A DNA stretch of 64,000 nucleotides from an uncultured Actinomycetota bacterium (GCA_963803135.1 CAWDLH010000008.1:957732-1021731); one strand, 5' to 3'; positions 1 to 8,606 are shown, numbered from the stretch's first letter. The notes: generated by a model from the letters alone, not told the origin. Numbers and translations are program-made.

Positions 1-471
1 GGTGCGGCTGACCACCGGGACCACCACCCACAGCACGATGAACACCGCGGCGACCCCGGCGCTGTACCAGAGCGCCGGGGTCTGCCCCAGCACCTCCTCG
101 AGGATGAACAGCACCGCGCCGAGGAGCGCGACGGCCAGGCAGGCCAGCCCGCCCAGCGCCATCCGGTGCGACACCCGGACGAGGTCGTCCTTCTGGCTGT
201 GCCGGAACACGATCCGGTGGAAGGCGACCGGCCCGACCAGCAGCGCGACCGCGCAGGCGGCGGCGAGCAGGGTCACCACGTACGTCCCGCGCTGCATCGA
301 GCTGATCGTGGTGAAGCGCTGGTTGAACACGATGGTCAGCAGGGAGGCGAACAGGATCTGCACGCCGACCTGCGCGACCCGCAGCTCCTGCAGCAGCTCG
401 CCGTAGTTGCGGTCGAGCCGCTCGGCCTCGGTCTCGTTCCGGCCGTCCGTGCCGCCTGATCGTTCGGCCAC
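1..471 (-). CDS. Conserved actinobacterial membrane protein (DUF6328-like), partial; 3' end lies beyond window start
   Basis: Not in the ORF track (no stop inside the window). My minus-strand translation from GTG at 471 reads VAERSGGTDGRNETEAERLDRNYGELLQELRVAQVGVQILFASLLTIVFNQRF..., followed by hydrophobic helices. It stays in frame to nt 1 with G/C-rich third positions. The family name is recalled, not searched. Confidence 0.6.
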   Translation of the reverse strand, partial: MAERSGGTDGRNETEAERLDRNYGELLQELRVAQVGVQILFASLLTIVFNQRFTTISSMQRGTYVVTLLAAACAVALLVGPVAFHRIVFRHSQKDDLVRVSHRMALGGLACLAVALLGAVLFILEEVLGQTPALWYSAGVAAVFIVLWVVVPVVSRT

Positions 472-528
472 GCCGCTGCCTTACCCCGCTTCGGTAAATC
501 GGATGCCCCGGCCGGCTAGCGTCGGAGC

Positions 529-1752
529 GTGCCCGTCGAGATCCGCCACCCCGTCCTGGACGAAGCCGCCGACTACCTCCGCAGCGTCAACACGGCGTTC
601 CTGCAGCCCGCGAGCCGGGACGAGCCGATGGCCCACTACTGGGCCGACGTGCTCAAGCCCGACCTCGACCGGTCCTGGGCGGCCTTCGACCGGGGCCGCG
701 CGGTCGCCAGCCTGCGCAGCCTGCCGTTCGAGGTCACCGTGCCCGGCGGCCGCACCGTCCCGGGCGACGGCGTCACGATGGTGACCGTGGCCGCGACGCA
801 CCGCCGCCGCGGGCTGCTCACCGGGATGATGAGCCGGGCCCAGCAGGACGCCAAGGACCGCGGTGACGTGGTCAGCGTGCTGATCGCGTCCGAGTGGCGC
901 ATCTACGGGCGGTACGGCTTCGGCGCGGCGACCGAGGCGGCCGAGTGGAGCGTCGACCGGCTCCGGGCCGGAGCGCCGAGCCCGCGCGGAGAGGTCGAGA
1001 TGGTCAGCGCGCAGGAGCTGCGGCTGCTCGCCCCGCCGGTGTACGACCAGGCCCGGCTGCGCCGCGCCGGCGGGCTGACCAGGCCGGAGGTCCGCTGGGA
1101 CCGGGACTTCGGCCTGCTGCGGATCGAGGGCGACTCGCGCTGGGACGGCCGCGCGACCGTGCACCGGGACGCGGACGGCGAGGTCGACGGCTACCTGCGG
1201 TGGACCGCCCGGTGGGCCGACAACGGCATGGACAACGTGTTGTCCGTGGACGAGCTGGTCGCGGCCACCGACGAGGCGTACGCGGACCTCTGGCGGTTCG
1301 CGCTGTCGGTCGACCTGATCGCGACGGTGAAGGCGGAGAGCCGGCCGGTCGAGGAGGCGCTGCCCTGGCTGGTCGCCGACGGCCGGGCGGTCCGGCAGGT
1401 CGACCGCTACGACTTCCTCTGGCTGCGGGTGCTCGACGTGCCGGCGGCGCTGACCGGGCGGGACTACCGGTCCGCCGGCCGGGTGGTGCTCGAGATCGTC
1501 GACCCGGCCGGCTACGCGGCGGGCCGGTTCGCGCTGGACGCCTCCCCCGCCGGTGCCACCTGCACGCCGACCACCGGATCGGCCGACCTGACGCTGCCGG
1601 TGACCGGGCTCGGCAGCGCGTACCTGGGCGGTCACCGGCTCGGCCTGCTCGCGGCGGCCGGCCTCGTGGACGAGCACACGCCCGGCGCCGTCGCCACCGC
1701 CGACCGGCTGTTCGGCGCCGACCGCGCGCCGTGGTGCACCCTGCACTTCTGA
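529..1752 (+). CDS. GNAT-family N-acetyltransferase, Eis-like (GNAT core plus long C-terminal extension)
   Basis: 407-aa ORF. It has a GNAT acetyl-CoA motif region (VTMVTVAATHRRRGLLTGMM) followed by a ~250-aa extension, as in Eis-type enzymes. Confidence 0.8.
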   Translation: MPVEIRHPVLDEAADYLRSVNTAFLQPASRDEPMAHYWADVLKPDLDRSWAAFDRGRAVASLRSLPFEVTVPGGRTVPGDGVTMVTVAATHRRRGLLTGMMSRAQQDAKDRGDVVSVLIASEWRIYGRYGFGAATEAAEWSVDRLRAGAPSPRGEVEMVSAQELRLLAPPVYDQARLRRAGGLTRPEVRWDRDFGLLRIEGDSRWDGRATVHRDADGEVDGYLRWTARWADNGMDNVLSVDELVAATDEAYADLWRFALSVDLIATVKAESRPVEEALPWLVADGRAVRQVDRYDFLWLRVLDVPAALTGRDYRSAGRVVLEIVDPAGYAAGRFALDASPAGATCTPTTGSADLTLPVTGLGSAYLGGHRLGLLAAAGLVDEHTPGAVATADRLFGADRAPWCTLHF

Positions 1753-1762
1753 CCGGAAAGGC

Positions 1763-1798
1763 TTGACAAGCTTTGTTTCGAAAGTTGTACTTCGAAAC
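1763..1798 (+). promoter_or_regulatory. Putative promoter/operator of the ArsR-type regulator (probable leaderless transcript)
   Basis: AT-rich island in GC-rich DNA. TTGACA lies at 1763-1768. An imperfect inverted repeat GTTTCGAAAG-N5-CTTCGAAAC (1775-1798) ends directly at the ATG at 1799, leaving no room for an SD. Confidence 0.45.
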
Positions 1799-2392
1799 AT
1801 GTCTTCCGAACGACGCCACCTCACCTCGCCGACCGAGCTGCGCGCGCTGAGCCACCCGACCCGGCTCACCCTGCTCACGCTGCTCGACGAGGAGGGACCG
1901 CTGACCGCCACCGAGGCCGGTGAGCGGATCGGCGAGTCCCCCGCGAACGCCTCGTTCCACCTGCGGACGCTGGCCAGGTACGGCTACGTCGAGGAGGCGC
2001 CCGGCGGTCGCGGCCGGCAACGGCCGTGGCAGGTCGTGCGGCGGGCCAACGACATCCCGGGCGACGAGCTGACGGCGGAGGCGAAGCTGGCCGCCGACGC
2101 GCTGCTGGAGCTGATCCGGGAGCGCGACAACGACCGGCTGCGGGCGTACGCCCGGACCCGCGGCGACTACCCCGAGCAGTGGCGCGCGGCGGCGACCGAG
2201 ATGCGGATGTCGCTGCACCTCACCGCCGCCGAGCTGGCCGAGCTGGGCGGGCGGATCGAGGAACTGCTGCAGCCCTACGTCGAGGGCACCGCGGGTGACG
2301 ACCGCCGGCCCGGCACCGCGCCGGTCGCCTTCGGGCTGTTCGCCGTGCCGACCAGGCTGCCCGCCGACCAGGACGAGGGAGACGTGCGATGA
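1799..2392 (+). CDS. ArsR-family winged-helix transcriptional regulator
   Basis: LRALSHPTRLTLLTLLDEEGPLTATEAGERIGESPANASFHLRTLARYGYVEE is a typical ArsR HTH. I prefer the ATG at 1799 over the track's TTG at 1763, which lies in the promoter-like island. There is a 4-nt overlap with the downstream MFS gene. Confidence 0.85.
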   Translation: MSSERRHLTSPTELRALSHPTRLTLLTLLDEEGPLTATEAGERIGESPANASFHLRTLARYGYVEEAPGGRGRQRPWQVVRRANDIPGDELTAEAKLAADALLELIRERDNDRLRAYARTRGDYPEQWRAAATEMRMSLHLTAAELAELGGRIEELLQPYVEGTAGDDRRPGTAPVAFGLFAVPTRLPADQDEGDVR

Positions 2393-3624
2393 CCGCCGTG
2401 CTGCGCAACCGCAACCTGAGGATCTTCCTCGGGATGGACGTGCTGTCGCTGACCGGCAGCAGTGCCCTCTGGCTCGCGCTGGGGATCTGGGTGAAGACGC
2501 TGACCGGCAGCACCGCGGCCGCCGGCATGGTGATCTTCGCGATCCTCGCCCCGCCGGTGCTGCTCGCGCCGGTCGCCGGGATGCTCGTCGACCGGGTCCG
2601 CCGCCGCCCGCTGCTGGTCGTGGTCAACCTGGCCAGCGCGGCCGCGGTCACGCTGCTGCTGCTGGTCCGCGACGGCGACCAGCTCTGGCTGATCTACGCG
2701 GTGGGTGCGCTGTACGGCGGGTCCTGGGCGCTGCTGCGCTCCGCCCAGTCGGCGCTGCTGCGCACGCTGGCGACCGACCCCGACCAGCTGCTGGCCGCGA
2801 ACGGCGCGCTGCAGACGGCCGCCGCGCTGTCCCGGCTGCTCAGCCCGGTCGCCGGCGCCGGGCTCTACGCGGTGGTCGGCCCGCACTCGGTCGTGCTGCT
2901 CGACGCGGCCACGTTCGTGGTCGCGGCCGGCGGGCTGCTGCTGATGCGGGTCACCGAGCCGGCCCCGGCGCCGGCCGACGGGCACTGGCGGGCCGAGGTG
3001 GCGGCCGGCCTGACCCACCTGCGCCGCACGGTGGTGCTCCGCCAGATCGTCGCCGCGGTCGCGCTGGCGATGCTGGTGATCGGCTTCATCGAGGTGATCA
3101 TGTTCGCGGTCGTCGACCAGGGACTGCACCGCTCCCCCGCGTTCCTCGGCGTGCTCGACCTCGGCTTCGGCGCGGGGTCGGTCGCCGGCGGGCTGCTCGC
3201 CGCCGCCGTGGTCCGCCGACTCGGCGCGGGCCACGCGGTCACCGCCGGGCTGGCCACGATCGCCGTCGGGGACCTGCTGCTCATGGTGCCGGTCGGCGTG
3301 GTCGCGGTGCTCGGGCTGGTGCTGATCGGGCTGGGCGTGCCCCCGGTGGTCGCCGGCATGTCGACCACGCTGCAGCTGCTCACCCCGATGCACCTGCAGG
3401 GCCGGACGTTCTCGGCCGTCGACGTCGTGGTCAGCACGCCGCAGAGCCTGTCGATCGCGCTCGGCGCGGCGCTGGCCGCGGTCGTCGACTTCCGGATCCT
3501 GGTCGCGGCGATGACGGTCGGGATCCTGCTCGCCGCGGCCTGGCTCGGCACCCGGCCCGAGCAGCGCCGCCGGCCCGCCCCGCTCCCCGACCCGGCCGGT
3601 CCGGTTCCCGTCGCGGCCGCCTGA
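2389..3624 (+). CDS. MFS transporter (EntS-like exporter type)
   Basis: 411 aa, about 12 hydrophobic helices, with an MFS loop motif (VAGMLVDRVRRRP). ATGA overlap with the ArsR gene suggests a regulator/efflux pair. Confidence 0.85.
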   Translation: MTAVLRNRNLRIFLGMDVLSLTGSSALWLALGIWVKTLTGSTAAAGMVIFAILAPPVLLAPVAGMLVDRVRRRPLLVVVNLASAAAVTLLLLVRDGDQLWLIYAVGALYGGSWALLRSAQSALLRTLATDPDQLLAANGALQTAAALSRLLSPVAGAGLYAVVGPHSVVLLDAATFVVAAGGLLLMRVTEPAPAPADGHWRAEVAAGLTHLRRTVVLRQIVAAVALAMLVIGFIEVIMFAVVDQGLHRSPAFLGVLDLGFGAGSVAGGLLAAAVVRRLGAGHAVTAGLATIAVGDLLLMVPVGVVAVLGLVLIGLGVPPVVAGMSTTLQLLTPMHLQGRTFSAVDVVVSTPQSLSIALGAALAAVVDFRILVAAMTVGILLAAAWLGTRPEQRRRPAPLPDPAGPVPVAAA

Positions 3625-3638
3625 CCGTACGCCGGCGG

Positions 3639-4604
3639 TCAGCCGACGGGCGTACGGGCCGGCTGCACCGGAGCCGGCACCAGGGCCGGCACCGGCTCGA
3701 CCTGACCGACCGGGGCCCGCACGTCGGCGCTCGCGAGGAACTGCCGCATCGTGCGTTCCACGCCGTAGCGGCGCCGGAGCAGCAGGAACACGATGAACGC
3801 GGGGATGCCGAAGAAGGTCTGGGCCGGCACCACGAAGTTGTTGTTCCCGCGGGTCACCGCGTCGAGCACCAGCGGTGCCAGCCCGGGGCCGAGTGACCCG
3901 AACACGACCACCACCGCCAGCGCGGCCCGCCACGCCGCCGGCCCGTACGCCTTGAGCGCGGCGATCGTGTAGAGCGCGTACACCAGCAGGTCGCCGATGC
4001 CGATGTTGGCGTTGTAGATGCCGAGCCGCATCCCGATCGACGGGTCGAGCGGGTAGCCGATGAAGGCGTCGGCGAGCAGCGGCGTCAACGGGATGAACAC
4101 GCTGAACGTGAGGTCGTAGCCGGCCAGGAACAGGGCGAACCACGCGACGTGCCGCAGCTGCATGCCGCCCTGCACGTACAGGTTGGCGACCGCGGACGCG
4201 CCCAGCAGCACGATCACGCTGGTCTCCGCCCAGTAGAACTGCCAGCCTCCGACGGTGCCGAGGGAGGTCCGGGCGACCCAGATGTTCACCCCGATGAGCA
4301 GGCCGATCGCGGTCCACAGCAGGGCCGGCCGCAGCACCGGCCGGTAGCCGATCGACAGCGAGGCGACGAACGTGAGCACCAGGAACGTGGTCAGCGCCCA
4401 GTGCGGCAGCACCAGGTAGAGCACCGGCAGCGTGACGATGAAGACGAACAGCACCACCACGTCGCGACCGTTGAACGTGCCGACCGCCGGCCGCTCCAGC
4501 CGGATCCGGCGCAGGTAGCCGGTGGCGAGCAGGCAGGTCGCGACGGCGCCGATCAGCACGACCAGGACCTGGACGAGCGTCTGCGGGACCAGCAGGTCGA
4601 CCAT
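3639..4604 (-). CDS. Polytopic (~9-TM) membrane protein with YD and GxGD motifs; candidate presenilin/SPP-like intramembrane aspartyl protease
   Basis: 321 aa. GAGGAG SD in the 12-nt gap after the ligase stop. About 9 hydrophobic segments. AGYD(164)LTF lies in predicted TM6, NIGIGD(205)LLVY in TM7 and VVPAQTF in TM9. That a CDS exists is near certain; the family call rests on motifs only. Confidence 0.55.
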   Translation of the reverse strand: MVDLLVPQTLVQVLVVLIGAVATCLLATGYLRRIRLERPAVGTFNGRDVVVLFVFIVTLPVLYLVLPHWALTTFLVLTFVASLSIGYRPVLRPALLWTAIGLLIGVNIWVARTSLGTVGGWQFYWAETSVIVLLGASAVANLYVQGGMQLRHVAWFALFLAGYDLTFSVFIPLTPLLADAFIGYPLDPSIGMRLGIYNANIGIGDLLVYALYTIAALKAYGPAAWRAALAVVVVFGSLGPGLAPLVLDAVTRGNNNFVVPAQTFFGIPAFIVFLLLRRRYGVERTMRQFLASADVRAPVGQVEPVPALVPAPVQPARTPVG

Positions 4605-4616
4605 CGGGATCTCCTC

Positions 4617-6029
4617 CTACGCCTTCGTCGTCGTGAAGCTGGTCTCGACCAGGTCGGCGCGCACGGTGCGCAGCTCCCGGCCGTCGGTGTCGACCGGGTG
4701 CAGCTCGACGTCCAGGCCGCGGTCGGCGAGGTGTTGCCGGGTCGCCGCCGCGCCGAACCCGTGCAGGGCACTCGCGGGCACGCTCAGGTGCAGCCGGCCG
4801 TCGACGACGGCGCCGCGGAACCGGGCCGGGTACGGCGCGGTCGGCAGCGCCTCCCAGGCCTCGACGAGCTCGCGCGGGGTGACGACACCGGCCGCCGTGC
4901 GGTACTGGCCGCCGGCCTTGCCGAGGATGGCCGAGGTGGCCGGGATCGCGGCGAGCTCGCAGTCCGGCGGCTCGACCAGCGTGCGGACCAGGTCCCGGGT
5001 GTCGTAGCGCAGCACCGGCATGCAGTCCCGGTACGGGAAGTAGGGCGTGACGACGAGCGTGCCCAGCTCGCCCGGCCCGGCCGGCCCCGAGCCGTCGAGC
5101 GCGAGCACCTCGACCAGGCCCATGTTGAGGTCCGGGTGCAGGTGACCGAGCGAGCAGCTGCGCCCGCTGACCGGCAGCACCTCGGTCATCGCGAACGTGT
5201 CGTTGACCAGCTCCAGCCCGAAGGTGGCGCGGGCCGCGACCGACAGTGCCGGCGACAGCACCTCGCCGCCCACGTCGGCGCGGCGCAGCGCGAAGTCCGC
5301 CGGGCCGAGACCCCGGCGGCGGGCGGCGTTGACCAGCTCGGCCAGGTACGACGGGTAGGTGGCGAGCATCGTCGGGCCCCGGTCCAGCAAGGAGTCGAGG
5401 CTCTCGTCGGGCGGCAGCACGCCGAGCACGCGGCTGCGCGCGCCGACCAGCCGGCACAGGGTCACGTCCTGCTGCACGGCGGCGGTCGCCCGCGAGCTGA
5501 TGTTGACCTGCATGCAGTCGTCCGGGCCGATCTCGCCGCGCAGCAACCCCGACAACGCCGCCATCGCCGGCCACAACTCGACCTCGTACGCGGACAACCA
5601 CACCTCGGCCGGCCGCCCGGTCGTCCCGGTCGTGCGGGTGGACATCACCGGCTCGACGCCGCGGCAGCGGAACTCCTCCGGGCGTGCCTGGAGCTCCGCC
5701 TTCGTGGTCACCGGCACCGCCGGCAGCGCCGGCGCGGTGAGCCGGGCGGGGTCCACGCCGGCCGAGGCGAAACGCTCGGCGTAGAACGGGGACAGCTCGG
5801 CCAGCCGCCGCGCGGTCCGGCGCACCGACCGGTCGGTGAACTCCTGCCTGGCCTCCGGGTCGGCGAAGGGGCCGTCGGTCAGCTGCTGGACGTCCGCGCC
5901 CGGCGTGCCGAACTCGGCCAGGGTGGCGCGGGCGTCGACGACGAGCTTCTGCACGGTCGCCGGGTCTATCCGCCGGCCCCACACCATCGCCATCGCCATC
6001 CGGAACTGCCGAAGCCCGGTCTCGAACAT
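4617..6029 (-). CDS. PaaK / coenzyme F390 synthetase-family adenylate-forming ligase
   Basis: STRTTGTTGRPAEVW (P-loop-like TSGTTG motif), FAMTE (YGxTE-like) and LRYDTRDLV (cf. PaaK RYRTRDL). I place the start at ATG 6029 (MFETGLRQF...) with GGAGA 4 nt upstream. The track's 6128 start adds an Arg/Gly-rich head. Confidence 0.8.
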   Translation of the reverse strand: MFETGLRQFRMAMAMVWGRRIDPATVQKLVVDARATLAEFGTPGADVQQLTDGPFADPEARQEFTDRSVRRTARRLAELSPFYAERFASAGVDPARLTAPALPAVPVTTKAELQARPEEFRCRGVEPVMSTRTTGTTGRPAEVWLSAYEVELWPAMAALSGLLRGEIGPDDCMQVNISSRATAAVQQDVTLCRLVGARSRVLGVLPPDESLDSLLDRGPTMLATYPSYLAELVNAARRRGLGPADFALRRADVGGEVLSPALSVAARATFGLELVNDTFAMTEVLPVSGRSCSLGHLHPDLNMGLVEVLALDGSGPAGPGELGTLVVTPYFPYRDCMPVLRYDTRDLVRTLVEPPDCELAAIPATSAILGKAGGQYRTAAGVVTPRELVEAWEALPTAPYPARFRGAVVDGRLHLSVPASALHGFGAAATRQHLADRGLDVELHPVDTDGRELRTVRADLVETSFTTTKA

Positions 6030-6087
6030 GCCGTCTCCAGGGAATCCGTCTCGGTCGTTGAGTGGGCCGGCGCCCGTCGCGCTGCCC

Positions 6088-6116
6088 CCGGCCGGCCGCA
6101 GGCCGCGGCTGGCCGG
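6088..6116 (-). other. GC-rich stem-loop between micro-ORF and ligase gene
   Basis: Minus strand CCGGCC-A-GCCGC [GGCCT] GCGGC-C-GGCCGG gives 11 bp with one A.C mismatch. No U-tract follows. Confidence 0.4.
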
Positions 6117-6144
6117 CGCGGCGGGCACCGGCCCCCCGTGCGGC

Positions 6145-6237
6145 TCAGGAGCCGCCGGCGCAGGCCGCGAACAGCACGGCGGTGAGCGAACCCATGGCGT
6201 ACCGGGCGTGCTTGACGGTGCTCTTGAAAGCGGACAT
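6145..6237 (-). CDS. 30-codon micro-ORF: signal-peptide-like / single-TM peptide MSAFKSTVKHARYAMGSLTAVLFAACAGGS
   Basis: GAGAGGAGG lies 5 nt upstream of the ATG. 27 of 29 codons after the ATG end in G/C. Basic N-region, hydrophobic core, and LFAAC resembling a lipobox. Located directly upstream of the ligase gene on the same strand. Confidence 0.55.
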   Translation of the reverse strand: MSAFKSTVKHARYAMGSLTAVLFAACAGGS

Positions 6238-6317
6238 GACGACCTCCTCTCGACACTGTCGGCGGGACGGAGCCGGCGGCGACGGTCGCGACTGCGCCCC
6301 CGCCGGGGTCTGCGCTG

Positions 6318-6740
6318 CTAGGAGTCGGTGACCGTCACGGTTACGGTCATCTCCGGGTGCAGCGAGCACGTCACGTGGTACGTGCCGGGGGTGTTCCACG
6401 TCGCTGTCGTGTACGTCTGCCCCGACTCGCTCAGGAAGGCGCCGCGGGCGCCGAGCGACGGGGCTCCGGGCTCGGACGTGATCCGGCCGTCCTCGCCCGG
6501 CCCGATCACGTGCAGCCATCGGGAGTCGTTGACGAACGTGAGGGTGTCGCCCGTGCCGATGGTCACGGCGGGGTAGTCGCCGGATTTCACCTGGGCCGTG
6601 GCGGTGTCCGGCACGGCGAAGGCCTCGTGTTCCATCCCGACCGTCCCGGCCGGCGCGCGAGCCGGCCCGGCGGTCACCGTCGGCACCACGGCGCCGGCCA
6701 CCAGAAGCGGCACGGCGAGGAGAAACCGGGGCACGGACAC
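6318..6740 (-). CDS. Secreted cupredoxin (type-1 copper, amicyanin/plastocyanin-like)
   Basis: Signal peptide VSVPRFLLAVPLLVAGAVVPTVTAGPARA. Copper ligands FVNDSRWLH...YHVTCSLHPEM (H...C-x2-H-x2-M). I place the start at GTG 6740, preceded by GGGAGGG; the track's 6791 start is less likely. Confidence 0.8.
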   Translation of the reverse strand: MSVPRFLLAVPLLVAGAVVPTVTAGPARAPAGTVGMEHEAFAVPDTATAQVKSGDYPAVTIGTGDTLTFVNDSRWLHVIGPGEDGRITSEPGAPSLGARGAFLSESGQTYTTATWNTPGTYHVTCSLHPEMTVTVTVTDS

Positions 6741-6869
6741 GGAACCCTCCCAAGGCGCAGGTTGTCCACCAACACCGGCCGAAGGGGGCAATCTCCGTGC
6801 GGTAGCTGAGAGTGTTGGCTCGGGCGCTGGGGGCTGTCAATGTCGCGCGAGCAAAGGTGCCCTAAGAGA

Positions 6870-6961
6870 CTGTGGACAGCGCATCCGTCCACAGCCGTTC
6901 GGCGCAGTTCACCCCAAGCTGAGACAAGGGCGCGCCAAGGACCCTTTGTCCGGTCCGGACA
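6870..6961. promoter_or_regulatory. Two perfect palindromes in the lower-GC region upstream of the cupredoxin gene
   Basis: CTGTGGAC-N9-GTCCACAG (6870-6894) and TGTCCGG-T-CCGGACA (6947-6961). Function unknown: operator, or terminator of the SPFH operon. Confidence 0.25.
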
Positions 6962-7044
6962 GCCGGTACGGCAGGCCGCATCCGGACCGTTCTCGGTCAC
7001 GTCCCGGCGCACCGGGCGCCGGCGGCGCCGGCTCGGGCCGGCTC

Positions 7045-7268
7045 GGACCGGCCCGTTCCCGGGCCGGCCCGTTCCCGGGCCGGCCCGTTCTCGGCCGGCC
7101 CGGCGCGGTCGCCGGCTCCGGCCGGCTCGGGCCGGGTCGGCTCGGCGCGGTCGCTGGCTGGGGCCGGGTCGGCTCGGCGCGGTCGCCGGCTCCGGGCCGG
7201 CTCGGGCCGGGTCGGCTCGGCGCGGTCGCTGGCTGGGGCCGGGTCGGCTCGGCGCGGTCGCTGGCGGG
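7045..7268. repeat. Composite GC-rich tandem repeats abutting the SPFH stop codon
   Basis: A 16-nt unit GG(A/G)CCGGCCCGTTC(C/T)C occurs x3 (7045-7092). A ~75-nt unit (GGCGCGGTCGCCGGCTCCGGCCGGCTCGGGCCGGGTCGGCTC + GGCGCGGTCGCTGGCTGGGGCCGGGTCGGCTC) occurs x2 plus a partial copy (7102-7268). Confidence 0.8.
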
Positions 7269-8606
7269 CTAGCGGGGTGGGCCCTGGCGGCCGGTGGGGG
7301 GCTGGCCGGCTCCGGGCTGGGACCGTCCGGGGTATGCCGAGCCGGACGAGGGTTCCCCGTACGGTCCGGAGGACGGGCCGGTCGCCGGGGTGGTGTACTG
7401 GGCCGGGGTCGGCGGGAGCGCCCGCGGCCCGTCGTCCTCGTCCGGCAGATCGTCCTGCCCGTCCGGCGGGTCGTACGACAACCTGGCGTGCGCGGCGGCG
7501 GTCTCGCTGTCGCGGTCGGACGCCCGGATCTCCGCCTCCGGCTGCAGCCGCGCCGGCGGCAGCTTCGAGTCGAACCAGTCGCTCGTGTCGAGCGTCTCCT
7601 TCGGCGCGGTGGGCCGCCCGCCGGGCGACTTCGCCGCCTCGGTCAGCCAGGACGGCGACGCCGACCCGTCCGACGACGCTCCGGTCAGCCCGGCCAGCCC
7701 CTCCAGCGCCTTGGAGAACTCGCTCGGCACGATCCAGAGCTTGTTCGCGTCGCCCTGCGCGATCTGCGGCAAGGTCTGCAGGTATTGGTAGGCGAGCAGC
7801 TTCGGGTCGGGGTCGGACGCGTGGATCGACGCGAACACCGTCTCGATCGCCTTGGCCTGGCCCTGCGCGGCCAGGTAGCGGGCGGCCCGCTCACCCTCGG
7901 CCCGCAGGATCCGGGACTGCCGCTCGGCCTCGGCGGCGAGGATCGCGGACTGCTTGGCACCCTCGGCGGCGAGGATCTGCGCCGCCTTCTGCCCCTCGGC
8001 GGTCTTGATCGAGGACTCCCGGGCACCCTCCGACTGCAGGATGATCGCCCGCTTGTCCCGGTCGGCCCGCATCTGCTTCTCCATCGCGTCCTGGATGGAC
8101 GGCGGCGGGTCGATCGCCTTGAGCTCGACCCGGGCGACCCGGATCCCCCACTTGCCGGTGGCGTCGTCCAGCTCGCCGCGCAGCTTGGTGTTGATCTCGT
8201 CCCGGGAGGTCAGCGTCTGCTCCAGGTTCATCGCGCCGACCACGTTGCGCAGCGTGGTGACGGTGAGCTGCTCGACGGCCTGGATGTAGTTGGCGATCTC
8301 GTACGTCGCCGCCCGCGGGTCGGTGACCTGGAAGTAGATGACCGTGTCGATGTTCACGGTCAGGTTGTCCGCGGTGATCACCGGCTGCGGCGGGAACGAG
8401 ACGACCTGCTCGCGCAGGTCGATCATCTGCCGGACCCGGTCCACGAACGGGATCAGCACGTGCGGACCGGGGTCGAGGGTGCGCGAATAACTGCCCAGCC
8501 GCTCGACGACGCCCGCGCGGGCCTGCGGGACGATCCGGATGCTGCGCAGCAGTATCACGACGATGAACGCGATGACGACGAGCAGGGCGATGAGACCGGC
8601 TTCCAT
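7269..8606 (-). CDS. SPFH/band-7 (stomatin-like, QmcA-type) membrane protein with long disordered Pro/Gly-rich C-terminal tail
   Basis: N-terminal TM, then IVPQARAGVVERLGSY...LIPFVDRV...IDTVIYFQV...TLRNVVG...EINTKLR...WGIRVARVELKAIDPP. Paired with NfeD upstream. Confidence 0.9.
   Translation of the reverse strand: MEAGLIALLVVIAFIVVILLRSIRIVPQARAGVVERLGSYSRTLDPGPHVLIPFVDRVRQMIDLREQVVSFPPQPVITADNLTVNIDTVIYFQVTDPRAATYEIANYIQAVEQLTVTTLRNVVGAMNLEQTLTSRDEINTKLRGELDDATGKWGIRVARVELKAIDPPPSIQDAMEKQMRADRDKRAIILQSEGARESSIKTAEGQKAAQILAAEGAKQSAILAAEAERQSRILRAEGERAARYLAAQGQAKAIETVFASIHASDPDPKLLAYQYLQTLPQIAQGDANKLWIVPSEFSKALEGLAGLTGASSDGSASPSWLTEAAKSPGGRPTAPKETLDTSDWFDSKLPPARLQPEAEIRASDRDSETAAAHARLSYDPPDGQDDLPDEDDGPRALPPTPAQYTTPATGPSSGPYGEPSSGSAYPGRSQPGAGQPPTGRQGPPR

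Follow-up and report, generated by a model that had tools for sequence, protein, structure and literature searches.

What does a 30-codon open reading frame (ORF), encoding a membrane micropeptide, do among genes for a putative secreted copper protein, an adenylating ligase and a polytopic membrane protein? This question is raised by a locus at positions 3,639 to 6,740 of a 64,000-nucleotide (nt) stretch of DNA, hereafter the window, from an uncultured Actinomycetota bacterium (GCA_963803135.1 CAWDLH010000008.1:957732-1021731). The four ORFs all lie on the minus strand and form one conserved unit: a cupredoxin-like gene (gene 1), the micro-ORF (gene 2), a PaaK-family ligase gene (gene 3) and the gene of a nine-transmembrane (TM) protein (gene 4). 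A preliminary description of this DNA had proposed a peptide-maturation locus. The conserved unit, the type II peptide, the GxGD homologue, the adenylating ligase and the hairpin of that proposal all found support, while its chain of cleavage and ligation stays a proposal. Our own reading, held tentatively and at slightly less than even odds (about 45%), is that the micropeptide serves as dedicated type II substrate to an SPP-type protease (SPP, signal peptide peptidase), and that the ligase acts at the cytoplasmic side.

The membrane protein (positions 3639..4604, minus strand; 321 amino acids) was matched by none of the sequence profiles. It had no Pfam match at E up to 1 and no NCBIfam match, so that assignment to an unrelated family, an outcome envisaged by the preliminary description, occurred in neither collection. 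The profiles of families PF06550, PF04258 and PF01080 did not match it, the profile of its own family found no PDB chain at E up to 10, and all of its database relatives (767/767) are unnamed. Since these sequence-profile routes found nothing, the link to presenilins rests on fold comparison. The AlphaFold2 (AF2) model (39 homologues) has nine long helices, with a predicted local distance difference test score (pLDDT) of 88 and a predicted TM-score (pTM) of 0.86, and the first 21 ranks of a Foldseek search with it (ranks 1-21) are all presenilin-1/2, SPPL2a or the archaeal presenilin homologue PSH. Exhaustive structure alignment gave a Z score of 22.9 to human SPPL2a (9k93) over 254 residues, at 3.1 Å and approximately 14% identity; PSH (4hyc) scored 16.8 and presenilin-2 (PS2) 12.8, and the next unrelated row 6.4. 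The nearest ESM-Atlas clusters are likewise archaeal SPP/Presenilin families. PF06550 detected nothing in the window's genome at E up to 10. A sample of 151 genomes of the class gave no match to it either, while it did detect its controls, Haloferax and Methanosarcina. For this reason the protein, as modelled, appears to represent a separate bacterial branch of the presenilin/SPP fold that current profiles do not cover.

The nine TM helices and the YD and GxGD motifs noticed earlier proved to be real. The first catalytic-aspartate motif, Y163-D164, stands near the end of the TM6 helix (150-169) and is invariant in the 39 close homologues, D164 being invariant also in 24 sequences down to 25% identity. 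The second, G202-I-G204-D205, opens TM7 (helix 203-220), and its residues G202, G204 and D205 are invariant in both alignments. P260-A-Q262 precedes the TM9 helix (261-280), with P260 at least 90% conserved in the deep alignment; at the third position of this motif, the PAL motif of known proteases, the family has Q or M, not L. In the AF2 model two strands (189-194 and 197-202) form a beta-hairpin immediately before GxGD. Published work on SPPL2a gives nine TMs, the PhiD, GxGD and PAL motifs and type II substrates as features of that family, and reports that the preformed beta-hairpin of SPPL2a is essential and docks the substrate strand (PMC12745688). Predicted structure and motifs together thus speak, in line with the intramembrane protease suggested previously, for a presenilin/SPP-fold homologue of the GxGD intramembrane aspartyl proteases, an assignment made in the face of the missing profile match.

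By the positive-inside rule (a mean of 7.7 lysines and arginines in inside loops vs 2.7 in outside loops), the predicted orientation of the protein is N-out/C-in, that of SPP and opposite to that of presenilin. The SPP orientation is the one that cleaves type II peptides. On the cytoplasmic side lie invariant motifs specific to this family: loop 1 has RPxxGxFNxxD, NLYVQGGM follows TM5 and the tail carries ERT. Of these, RPxxGxFNxxD and ERT could form a docking surface for a cytoplasmic partner.

Relatives of the membrane protein were present in 7 of 61 related genomes, the window's own included, and in only 1 of 400 other genomes drawn as an even sample of the phylum. One Actinomycetota genome of the phylum sample (G458) has two copies of the protease family, on contigs C174 and C62. 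A scan of one genome per species yielded 127 loci, 80 of which were examined; they span Micromonosporaceae, Jatrophihabitantaceae, Pseudonocardiaceae, Streptosporangiaceae, Catenulisporaceae, Acidimicrobiia and Nocardioidaceae, and outside the phylum the cassette also occurs in Ktedonobacterales. In Labedaea, Kutzneria and Actinocrinis the four genes stand in identical order between unrelated flanks. Among the 69 loci with at least 2.3 kilobases (kb) upstream of the membrane gene, (i) all carry the micro-ORF (69/69), (ii) 65 have the ligase directly adjacent to the membrane gene, the remaining loci being frameshifted or interrupted assemblies, and (iii) 64 have the cupredoxin gene directly upstream of the micro-ORF. 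Homologues of the ligase and the membrane protein are therefore co-localised in other genomes (65/69), a point on which the preliminary description had let its proposal depend, and the four-gene order, which recurs in dozens of independent loci, is by these sequence comparisons far above chance.

The cassette had also been described as an accessory block, located between an MFS (major facilitator superfamily) gene and an SPFH gene, and both statements are borne out within the genus. In three genomes (G002, G001, G007) the MFS and SPFH genes adjoin; by blastn, window positions 1-3574 and 7404-8606 align to these genomes and the stretch between them, the insertion (approximately 3575..7403), gives way to some 300 nt. 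In a fourth congener the cassette sits at the identical site. No repeats or mobile-element genes were found to bound the insertion. From its distribution, the cassette appears to be a rare, self-contained and horizontally mobile operon of soil actinobacteria. Its cultured carriers are Labedaea rhizosphaerae DSM 45361, Catenulispora yoronensis, C. subtropica, Nonomuraea sediminis, Rugosimonospora africana, Virgisporangium aurantiacum and a Kutzneria sp.

Is the micro-ORF (6145..6237, minus strand; 30 codons) a gene at all? Public annotation calls it as a 'hypothetical protein'. Across the four-gene loci the peptide is 30 or 31 codons long, and in every orthologous locus listed its ATG is preceded, 5-9 nt upstream, by a Shine-Dalgarno sequence of the GGAGG type. 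The consensus of the orthologues reads M-S-x-L-x-x-S-V-K-H-A-R-Y-A-M-G-S-L-T-A-V-L-F-A-A-x-x-G-x-x-F, with a mean column identity of 74% and with K9, H10, Y13, G16, S17, V21 and F23 invariant. The entropies of codon positions 1, 2 and 3 are 0.61, 0.39 and 1.06, and because variation is thus concentrated at third positions the sequences indicate a real gene under selection as a protein. The preliminary description had made its case hang on a micro-ORF that is conserved and translated, and it looks to be both.

The peptide consists of an n-region, one short hydrophobic span (its h-region, in which Gly, Ser and Thr occur) and a tail of 5-8 residues. In the window its N-terminus carries the basic residues K5, K9, H10 and R12; among the orthologues basic residues (mean 2.7) are confined to the first 13 residues and the tail is uncharged, for which reason the peptide should be a type II single-span peptide, N-in/C-out. 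In build it resembles a free-standing signal peptide, so that charge distribution and hydrophobic span both agree with the signal-peptide-like type II peptide proposed at the outset. N-terminus and span are conserved, and the C-terminal tail is variable. A small gene beside enzyme genes, with a conserved part and a variable tail and in some loci with tandem copies, is the arrangement of a precursor of peptides that ribosomes synthesise and that are modified after translation (RiPPs), a likeness of gene layout only. The window's peptide also fits a lipobox (LFAAC). Since the Cys is confined to one clade, most orthologues having Ala, Val or Thr in its place and ending in GxxF, lipoprotein processing was rejected as the general function of the micro-ORF.

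Comparison with more distant relatives separates the conserved core from its accessory. Seven members with 25-35% identity in the membrane protein were considered as deep clades. An adenylating-enzyme-sized gene lies directly upstream of the membrane gene in six of the seven, with Pfam AMP-binding in five of them; the contig of the seventh (L094) ends just upstream of the membrane gene. All six deep loci with readable DNA have a micro-ORF of 25-34 codons, whose peptide has a basic N-terminus followed by the pattern K/R-Y-x-hydrophobic-S/G-S/T-L; five of the six have an aromatic residue at a distance of exactly ten positions from the Tyr on its C-terminal side, and in L094, whose micro-ORF comes after the membrane gene, Val takes that place. 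L105 (1958-2374) has three tandem micro-ORFs upstream of the ligase gene and L093 (1-196) has two, every copy with its own ribosome-binding site. No cupredoxin gene was found in the neighbourhoods of the seven deep members. Because the deep clades keep the other three genes and do so without cupredoxin, the gene content points to micropeptide, ligase and protease as the conserved core, with cupredoxin as a clade-specific accessory partner; of the four-gene unit described earlier, the cupredoxin thus falls outside the core. Tandem copies are typical of precursor or substrate genes, not of subunits, and the repeated micro-ORFs accordingly speak more for a substrate or precursor than for a subunit. 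In one deep locus (L095:1490-2844) genes for an extracytoplasmic function (ECF) sigma factor and a DUF4232 protein are divergent from the trio.

The 115 nt that separate the micro-ORF from the ligase gene hold a GC-rich stem-loop (approximately 6064..6138, minus strand), of which the 11-bp GC hairpin reported before, at 6088-6116, forms the tip. The whole structure folds with -74.8 kcal/mol (z -2.75) and has no U tract. When the same gap was folded in 68 distinct loci the median z was -3.4, and 82% fell below -2 against mononucleotide shuffles; the hairpins are long, nearly perfect stems with no common sequence among loci, so that what has been kept is the structure. A hairpin directly after precursor-peptide genes is usual and keeps the peptide message in excess. 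That of the window is probably an attenuator or an element stabilising the mRNA, which sets the ratio of peptide to enzyme. Rfam returned no credible RNA family within 3300-7500, and consensus scans called neither a U-tract terminator nor a sigma-70-type promoter.

A regulatory leader would have much the same look: a strong Shine-Dalgarno sequence, a short ORF and then a stable hairpin ahead of enzyme genes. Its translation would control the hairpin and hence expression of ligase and protease, while the peptide itself would have no function. We give this explanation very little credence. The amino-acid sequence is conserved across phyla while third positions vary (1.06 vs 0.39 at second positions), the membrane-peptide pattern persists in clades without DNA similarity, the hairpins are alike in structure but not in sequence, and the micro-ORF of L094, placed after the membrane gene, could hardly lead it.

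The cupredoxin-like protein is encoded at 6318..6740 (minus strand; 140 amino acids, GTG start with GGGAGG upstream). It reached E 2e-3 and 19 bits with PF00127 (Copper-bind), under the cut-off of 21.2, and E 2e-4 with the amicyanin model, far below the cut-off of that model. The type-1 copper ligands H77, C125, H128 and M131 are invariant in 33 orthologues, with the spacing C-x2-H-x2-M, and by its sequence gene 1 would encode a secreted or anchored cupredoxin-like protein, that is, an extracytoplasmic type-1 copper protein. Many orthologues (for example L018, L033, L035, L037, L039, L041, L045, L049, L052 and L054) have Cys-rich C-terminal tails such as C-x-C-C-x3-4-C or CCC, a feature that suggests extra copper binding; the window's protein is without such a tail and has a 13-residue insertion after the signal region instead.

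Its N-terminal hydrophobic segment (PR-ILF-VPLL-AG) is as conserved as the mature part (0.63 vs 0.61) and includes the near-invariant P4, G16 and P20. Such helix-breaking residues are unusual in a signal peptide, and the segment is of type II. One may ask, then, whether this segment is the true substrate, cut for maturation, release or signal-peptide clearance, the micropeptide being an assembly factor or regulator and possibly a competitive pseudo-substrate. Eukaryotic SPP does act on signal peptides after signal peptidase (PMC12745688), and the Cys-rich tails of some orthologues suggest copper handling. Even so, we judge this improbable: the distant clades keep micro-ORF, ligase and protease without the cupredoxin, L084 and some Ktedonobacterales loci have it displaced, on the opposite strand or as a lipoprotein, and the ligase would be left unexplained.

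Gene 3 (4617..6029, minus strand; 470 amino acids) encodes the ligase, predicted to be cytoplasmic; alignment of orthologues places its start at the ATG at 6029 and not in the longer GTG ORF from 6128. Pfam AMP-binding recognises it weakly (31 bits), and all NCBIfam equivalogs score far below their cut-offs, PaaK (TIGR02155) reaching 42 bits against 646. The name in the public record, phenylacetate-CoA ligase, was accordingly rejected as a statement of orthology and can serve as a family label only. The AF2 model (pLDDT 90) matched PaaK1 in Foldseek at E 2e-26 with a TM-score of 0.71-0.78, and structure alignment gave Z 31.5 over 424 residues to HCL (2-hydroxyisobutyryl-CoA ligase), 30.8 to BT_0428, 29.4 to ClxA and 29.3 to a PaaK-family AMP ligase (6siw). 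The phosphate loop (T133, T134, G135, G138), the TE motif (T282, E283) and D343 and D346 are invariant, and Y342, T344 and R345, which complete the Y-D-T-R-D motif, are near-invariant. Modelled fold and adenylation motifs thus uphold the earlier identification of a PaaK-type adenylating ligase, which has the full two-domain fold and looks active. A metal site, considered for conserved Cys and His residues of the ligase, was dropped, since the segment in which they lie is conserved in PaaK enzymes too.

In the window, 12 nt (4605..4616, minus strand; GAGGAGATCCCG) separate the ligase gene from the membrane gene. Across loci the distance from ligase stop to membrane-gene start has a median of 1 nt and overlaps of 4-17 nt are frequent, an arrangement which indicates that the two proteins are translationally coupled. 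Apparent fusions of the two, seen in several metagenome assemblies, were rejected: in the 790-residue protein P0280 the match to the ligase extends to residue 373 only, and low-complexity, out-of-frame sequence lies between it and the protease part, the mark of a frameshift artefact, and the long merged ORFs L053:3537-5978 and L078:3564-6059 are frameshifted towards the 3' end of the ligase gene. These merged ORFs are probably assembly errors in a GC-rich stretch.

How might the three core products work together? In the reading we favour, the 30-residue peptide would insert in type II fashion, with the basic N-terminus kept in the cytoplasm and the short tail on the outer side, and would enter the protease laterally. 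The C-terminal half of the peptide would pair with the beta-hairpin preceding GxGD, and the D164/D205 pair would cut it inside the bilayer, at some point from Y13 to F23, both of them invariant. The ligase, whose synthesis keeps pace with that of the protease, would use ATP to activate a carboxylate on the cytoplasmic side: the C-terminus newly made when the N-terminal fragment is released, or else a small acid, which is then joined to the invariant K9 or Y13. A modified peptide would result, and the hairpin after the micro-ORF would hold peptide transcripts in excess over enzyme transcripts.

The micropeptide is taken as the substrate because the genes are inherited together amid unrelated flanks and show presence/absence polymorphism, because an N-out/C-in enzyme matches an N-in/C-out peptide, and because the deep clades keep the trio, some of them with tandem micro-ORFs. 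Fold, both aspartates, GxGD, PA(Q/M) and hairpin argue for the identity of the protease; translational coupling and the invariant cytoplasmic motifs of the protease argue for the ligase as its cytoplasmic partner; and the structured hairpin after the micro-ORF in 82% of loci lends further support. SPP substrates have helix-weakening residues in their span and a short ectodomain. The span of the micropeptide holds the small or helix-weakening residues G16, S17 and T19, and as there is almost no ectodomain, prior shedding would not be needed. A precedent exists in the TMcins, in which an operon-encoded membrane-spanning peptide is cut by its own intramembrane protease (PMC13712780). A complex prediction for membrane protein and micropeptide returned a score of 0.02, which bears neither for nor against binding.

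Several points weigh on the other side. Cleavage, binding and the chemistry of the ligase are all inferred. The micropeptide is conserved more strictly than the enzymes, which would fit a stably packed subunit too, and known substrates of SPP and presenilin are poorly conserved. The product of an aspartyl protease is an ordinary carboxylate, and we know of no PaaK-family enzyme that adenylates a peptide C-terminus; the solved structural relatives of the ligase act on small aryl or alkyl acids. The variable part of the micropeptide is its outer tail, out of reach of a cytoplasmic ligase, and the role of the cupredoxin is left unexplained by the substrate model. The more specific chain, in which the SPP-type homologue cuts a stand-alone signal peptide and the PaaK-type ligase re-activates the new carboxyl end of the cytoplasmic fragment with ATP and so cyclises the fragment or conjugates it to another molecule or protein, is one that we consider doubtful.

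The strict conservation of the peptide also invites an explanation in which it is never cut but is a permanent small subunit, or an acyl shuttle like DltX: at the cytoplasmic face the ligase would load an acyl group on Tyr13 or Lys9, which the membrane protein, holding the peptide, would then hand on or move to the other side of the membrane. The mean column identity of the peptide is very high (74%), with seven invariant residues and a fixed spacing from Y to F, and the small residues suit helix packing. The membrane microprotein DltX, with its invariant Tyr, is the D-Ala carrier between a polytopic membrane enzyme and that enzyme's partner, and the first step of its pathway is taken by an adenylating enzyme (PMC12148441); the PaaK family, for its part, includes CoA-independent formers of esters and amides (ClxA and NatL2-like enzymes, among the best structural matches). 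We nevertheless regard this explanation as unlikely. The full protease site (both aspartates, GxGD, PA-x and hairpin) is kept over deep divergence, and a GxGD-type site activates water and is not known for acyl transfer; the cassette is without MBOAT, SGNH or carrier protein; the DltX motif FxYxxF stands at the outer C-terminus whereas the Tyr of the micropeptide is on the cytoplasmic side; and tandem micro-ORFs (three in L105, two in L093) would be unusual for a stoichiometric subunit.

To our knowledge, no native substrate of a prokaryotic presenilin homologue has been established. With SPP/SPPL2a (MEROPS A22B) the membrane protein shares the nine-TM fold, YD in TM6, GxGD in TM7, Pro-Ala at TM9, the hairpin before GxGD and the predicted N-out/C-in orientation, and its candidate substrate is of type II, signal-peptide-like and almost without ectodomain. 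It differs in its identity of only about 14%, in matching none of the Pfam families SPP, Peptidase_A22B and Presenilin, in having PAQ or PAM in place of PAL, and in its own invariant cytoplasmic motifs; moreover, this predicted protease is bacterial and encoded beside a dedicated micropeptide and an adenylating ligase. Archaeal PSH/MCMJR1 (PF06550), a GxGD protease from prokaryotes, also stands alone and shares the fold (Z 16.8, 4hyc). PF06550, however, fails to detect the family described here, in which a candidate native substrate is encoded in the operon; published work on PSH relies on borrowed eukaryotic substrates (PMC2947513, PMC10679502).

The PaaK family (PaaK1, BT_0428, HCL, NatL2/AjiA1/ClxA) resembles the ligase in whole-protein fold (Z 29-31.5) and in the motifs for ATP binding and adenylation, but the ligase scores far below the equivalog cut-offs and is always paired with the membrane protease homologue and the micropeptide. 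Enterococcal sex pheromones and SHP peptides are short hydrophobic signals cut from signal-peptide-like sequences by the S2P protease Eep. The lipobox (LFAAC) of one clade of micropeptides recalls that system, which differs in its protease class and in having no ligase; the Cys is not family-wide here, and no receptor or regulator gene is linked. TMcin, a RiPP of Staphylococcus aureus, also has an operon-encoded TM-helix peptide and a dedicated intramembrane protease, but that protease is a metalloprotease of the S2P clan (DUF3267) and not an aspartyl GxGD homologue (PMC13712780). Its precursor has a 45-residue leader whereas the peptides described here have 25-34 residues in all, and its further steps are disulfide formation, escort and export, where the partners here are a PaaK-type ligase and a cupredoxin. 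The operon of the Dlt D-alanylation pathway (PMC12148441) encodes, side by side, the adenylating enzyme DltA, the membrane microprotein DltX, whose Tyr is invariant, and DltB, a polytopic membrane enzyme; it differs from the present cassette, which has no carrier, MBOAT or SGNH partner, has its Tyr on the opposite side of the membrane and has a protease homologue as its membrane protein. The closest enzyme is thus eukaryotic SPP/SPPL2a and the closest system logic that of the TMcin pathway. Searches of the literature on bacterial presenilin/SPP homologues and on this combination of genes retrieved nothing relevant, in agreement with the statement made at the outset that no described system of this composition was known. 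What is new, as judged from the model, is a branch of the presenilin/SPP fold in bacteria, together with the operon setting that links it to a candidate substrate.

Presenilin and SPP are intensively studied for Alzheimer's disease and immune signalling, and their prokaryotic homologues serve as structural models. Here an operon of 3 kb, present in cultured strains among others, pairs a presenilin-fold homologue with a 30-residue candidate substrate and a partner enzyme, so that recognition between a GxGD enzyme and its substrate becomes testable in a minimal, genetically defined system. The cassette may also stand for a new family of membrane-derived peptide products in soil actinobacteria, and three gene families now called 'hypothetical' or mis-named gain a concrete annotation. 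Should the more specific chain be true, in which the ligase re-activates the new carboxyl end, the micropeptide would be the first natural substrate of a prokaryotic presenilin-fold protease, the ligase would be the first PaaK-family enzyme acting on a peptide, and the whole would be a new kind of membrane-born peptide pathway, starting from a gene that encodes a signal peptide alone.

As regards the remaining layout, ORF calls gave the four minus-strand genes at the coordinates first assigned to them, and the gaps of 80, 115 and 12 nt were confirmed along with the Shine-Dalgarno sequences. The 80-nt spacer between the cupredoxin gene and the micro-ORF (6238..6317, minus strand) includes GAGGAGG, 6 nt before the ATG of the micro-ORF. 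The flanking MFS gene lies at 2389-3624 on the plus strand and the SPFH gene at 7269-8606 on the minus strand. Upstream of the cassette, at 6811-6840 on the minus strand, stands TTGACA, with AACACT 18 nt further on; a stretch that contains TTGACA and a stretch downstream are conserved between the window and the congener G006, two close relatives. Together these make a candidate promoter and 5' leader of the operon, which the consensus scan left uncalled. No upstream motif was common to all loci. Words like CGAATGTCC recur about 60-130 nt upstream of the cupredoxin start in loci of the Jatrophihabitans type, and the word CTATTTAC was found upstream of the cassette in loci of the Streptosporangiaceae type (the loci with such words being L019, L020, L023, L024, L025 and L046); both kinds of word are possible operator sites for lineage-specific regulators.

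Soil metagenomes contain close matches to the cassette. Within window positions 3500-6900, run X1 yielded pieces of 479 and 227 nt that are identical to the window, with no differences, and run X2 contained a relative about 94% alike, in pieces over nearly the whole cassette (3679-6656). These matching pieces indicate that the window organism or a close strain lives in soil. In two rhizosphere libraries of uncertain RNA status, 151-nt pieces 93-98% alike fell on the ligase and membrane genes; nothing was concluded from them. Finally, just downstream of the SPFH stop (7269), and inside the segment missing from the congeners without the cassette, lies a GC-rich tandem repeat array (7022-7265) with a 75-nt unit repeated 2.3 times at 96% matches and with nested periods of 32 and 42 nt.

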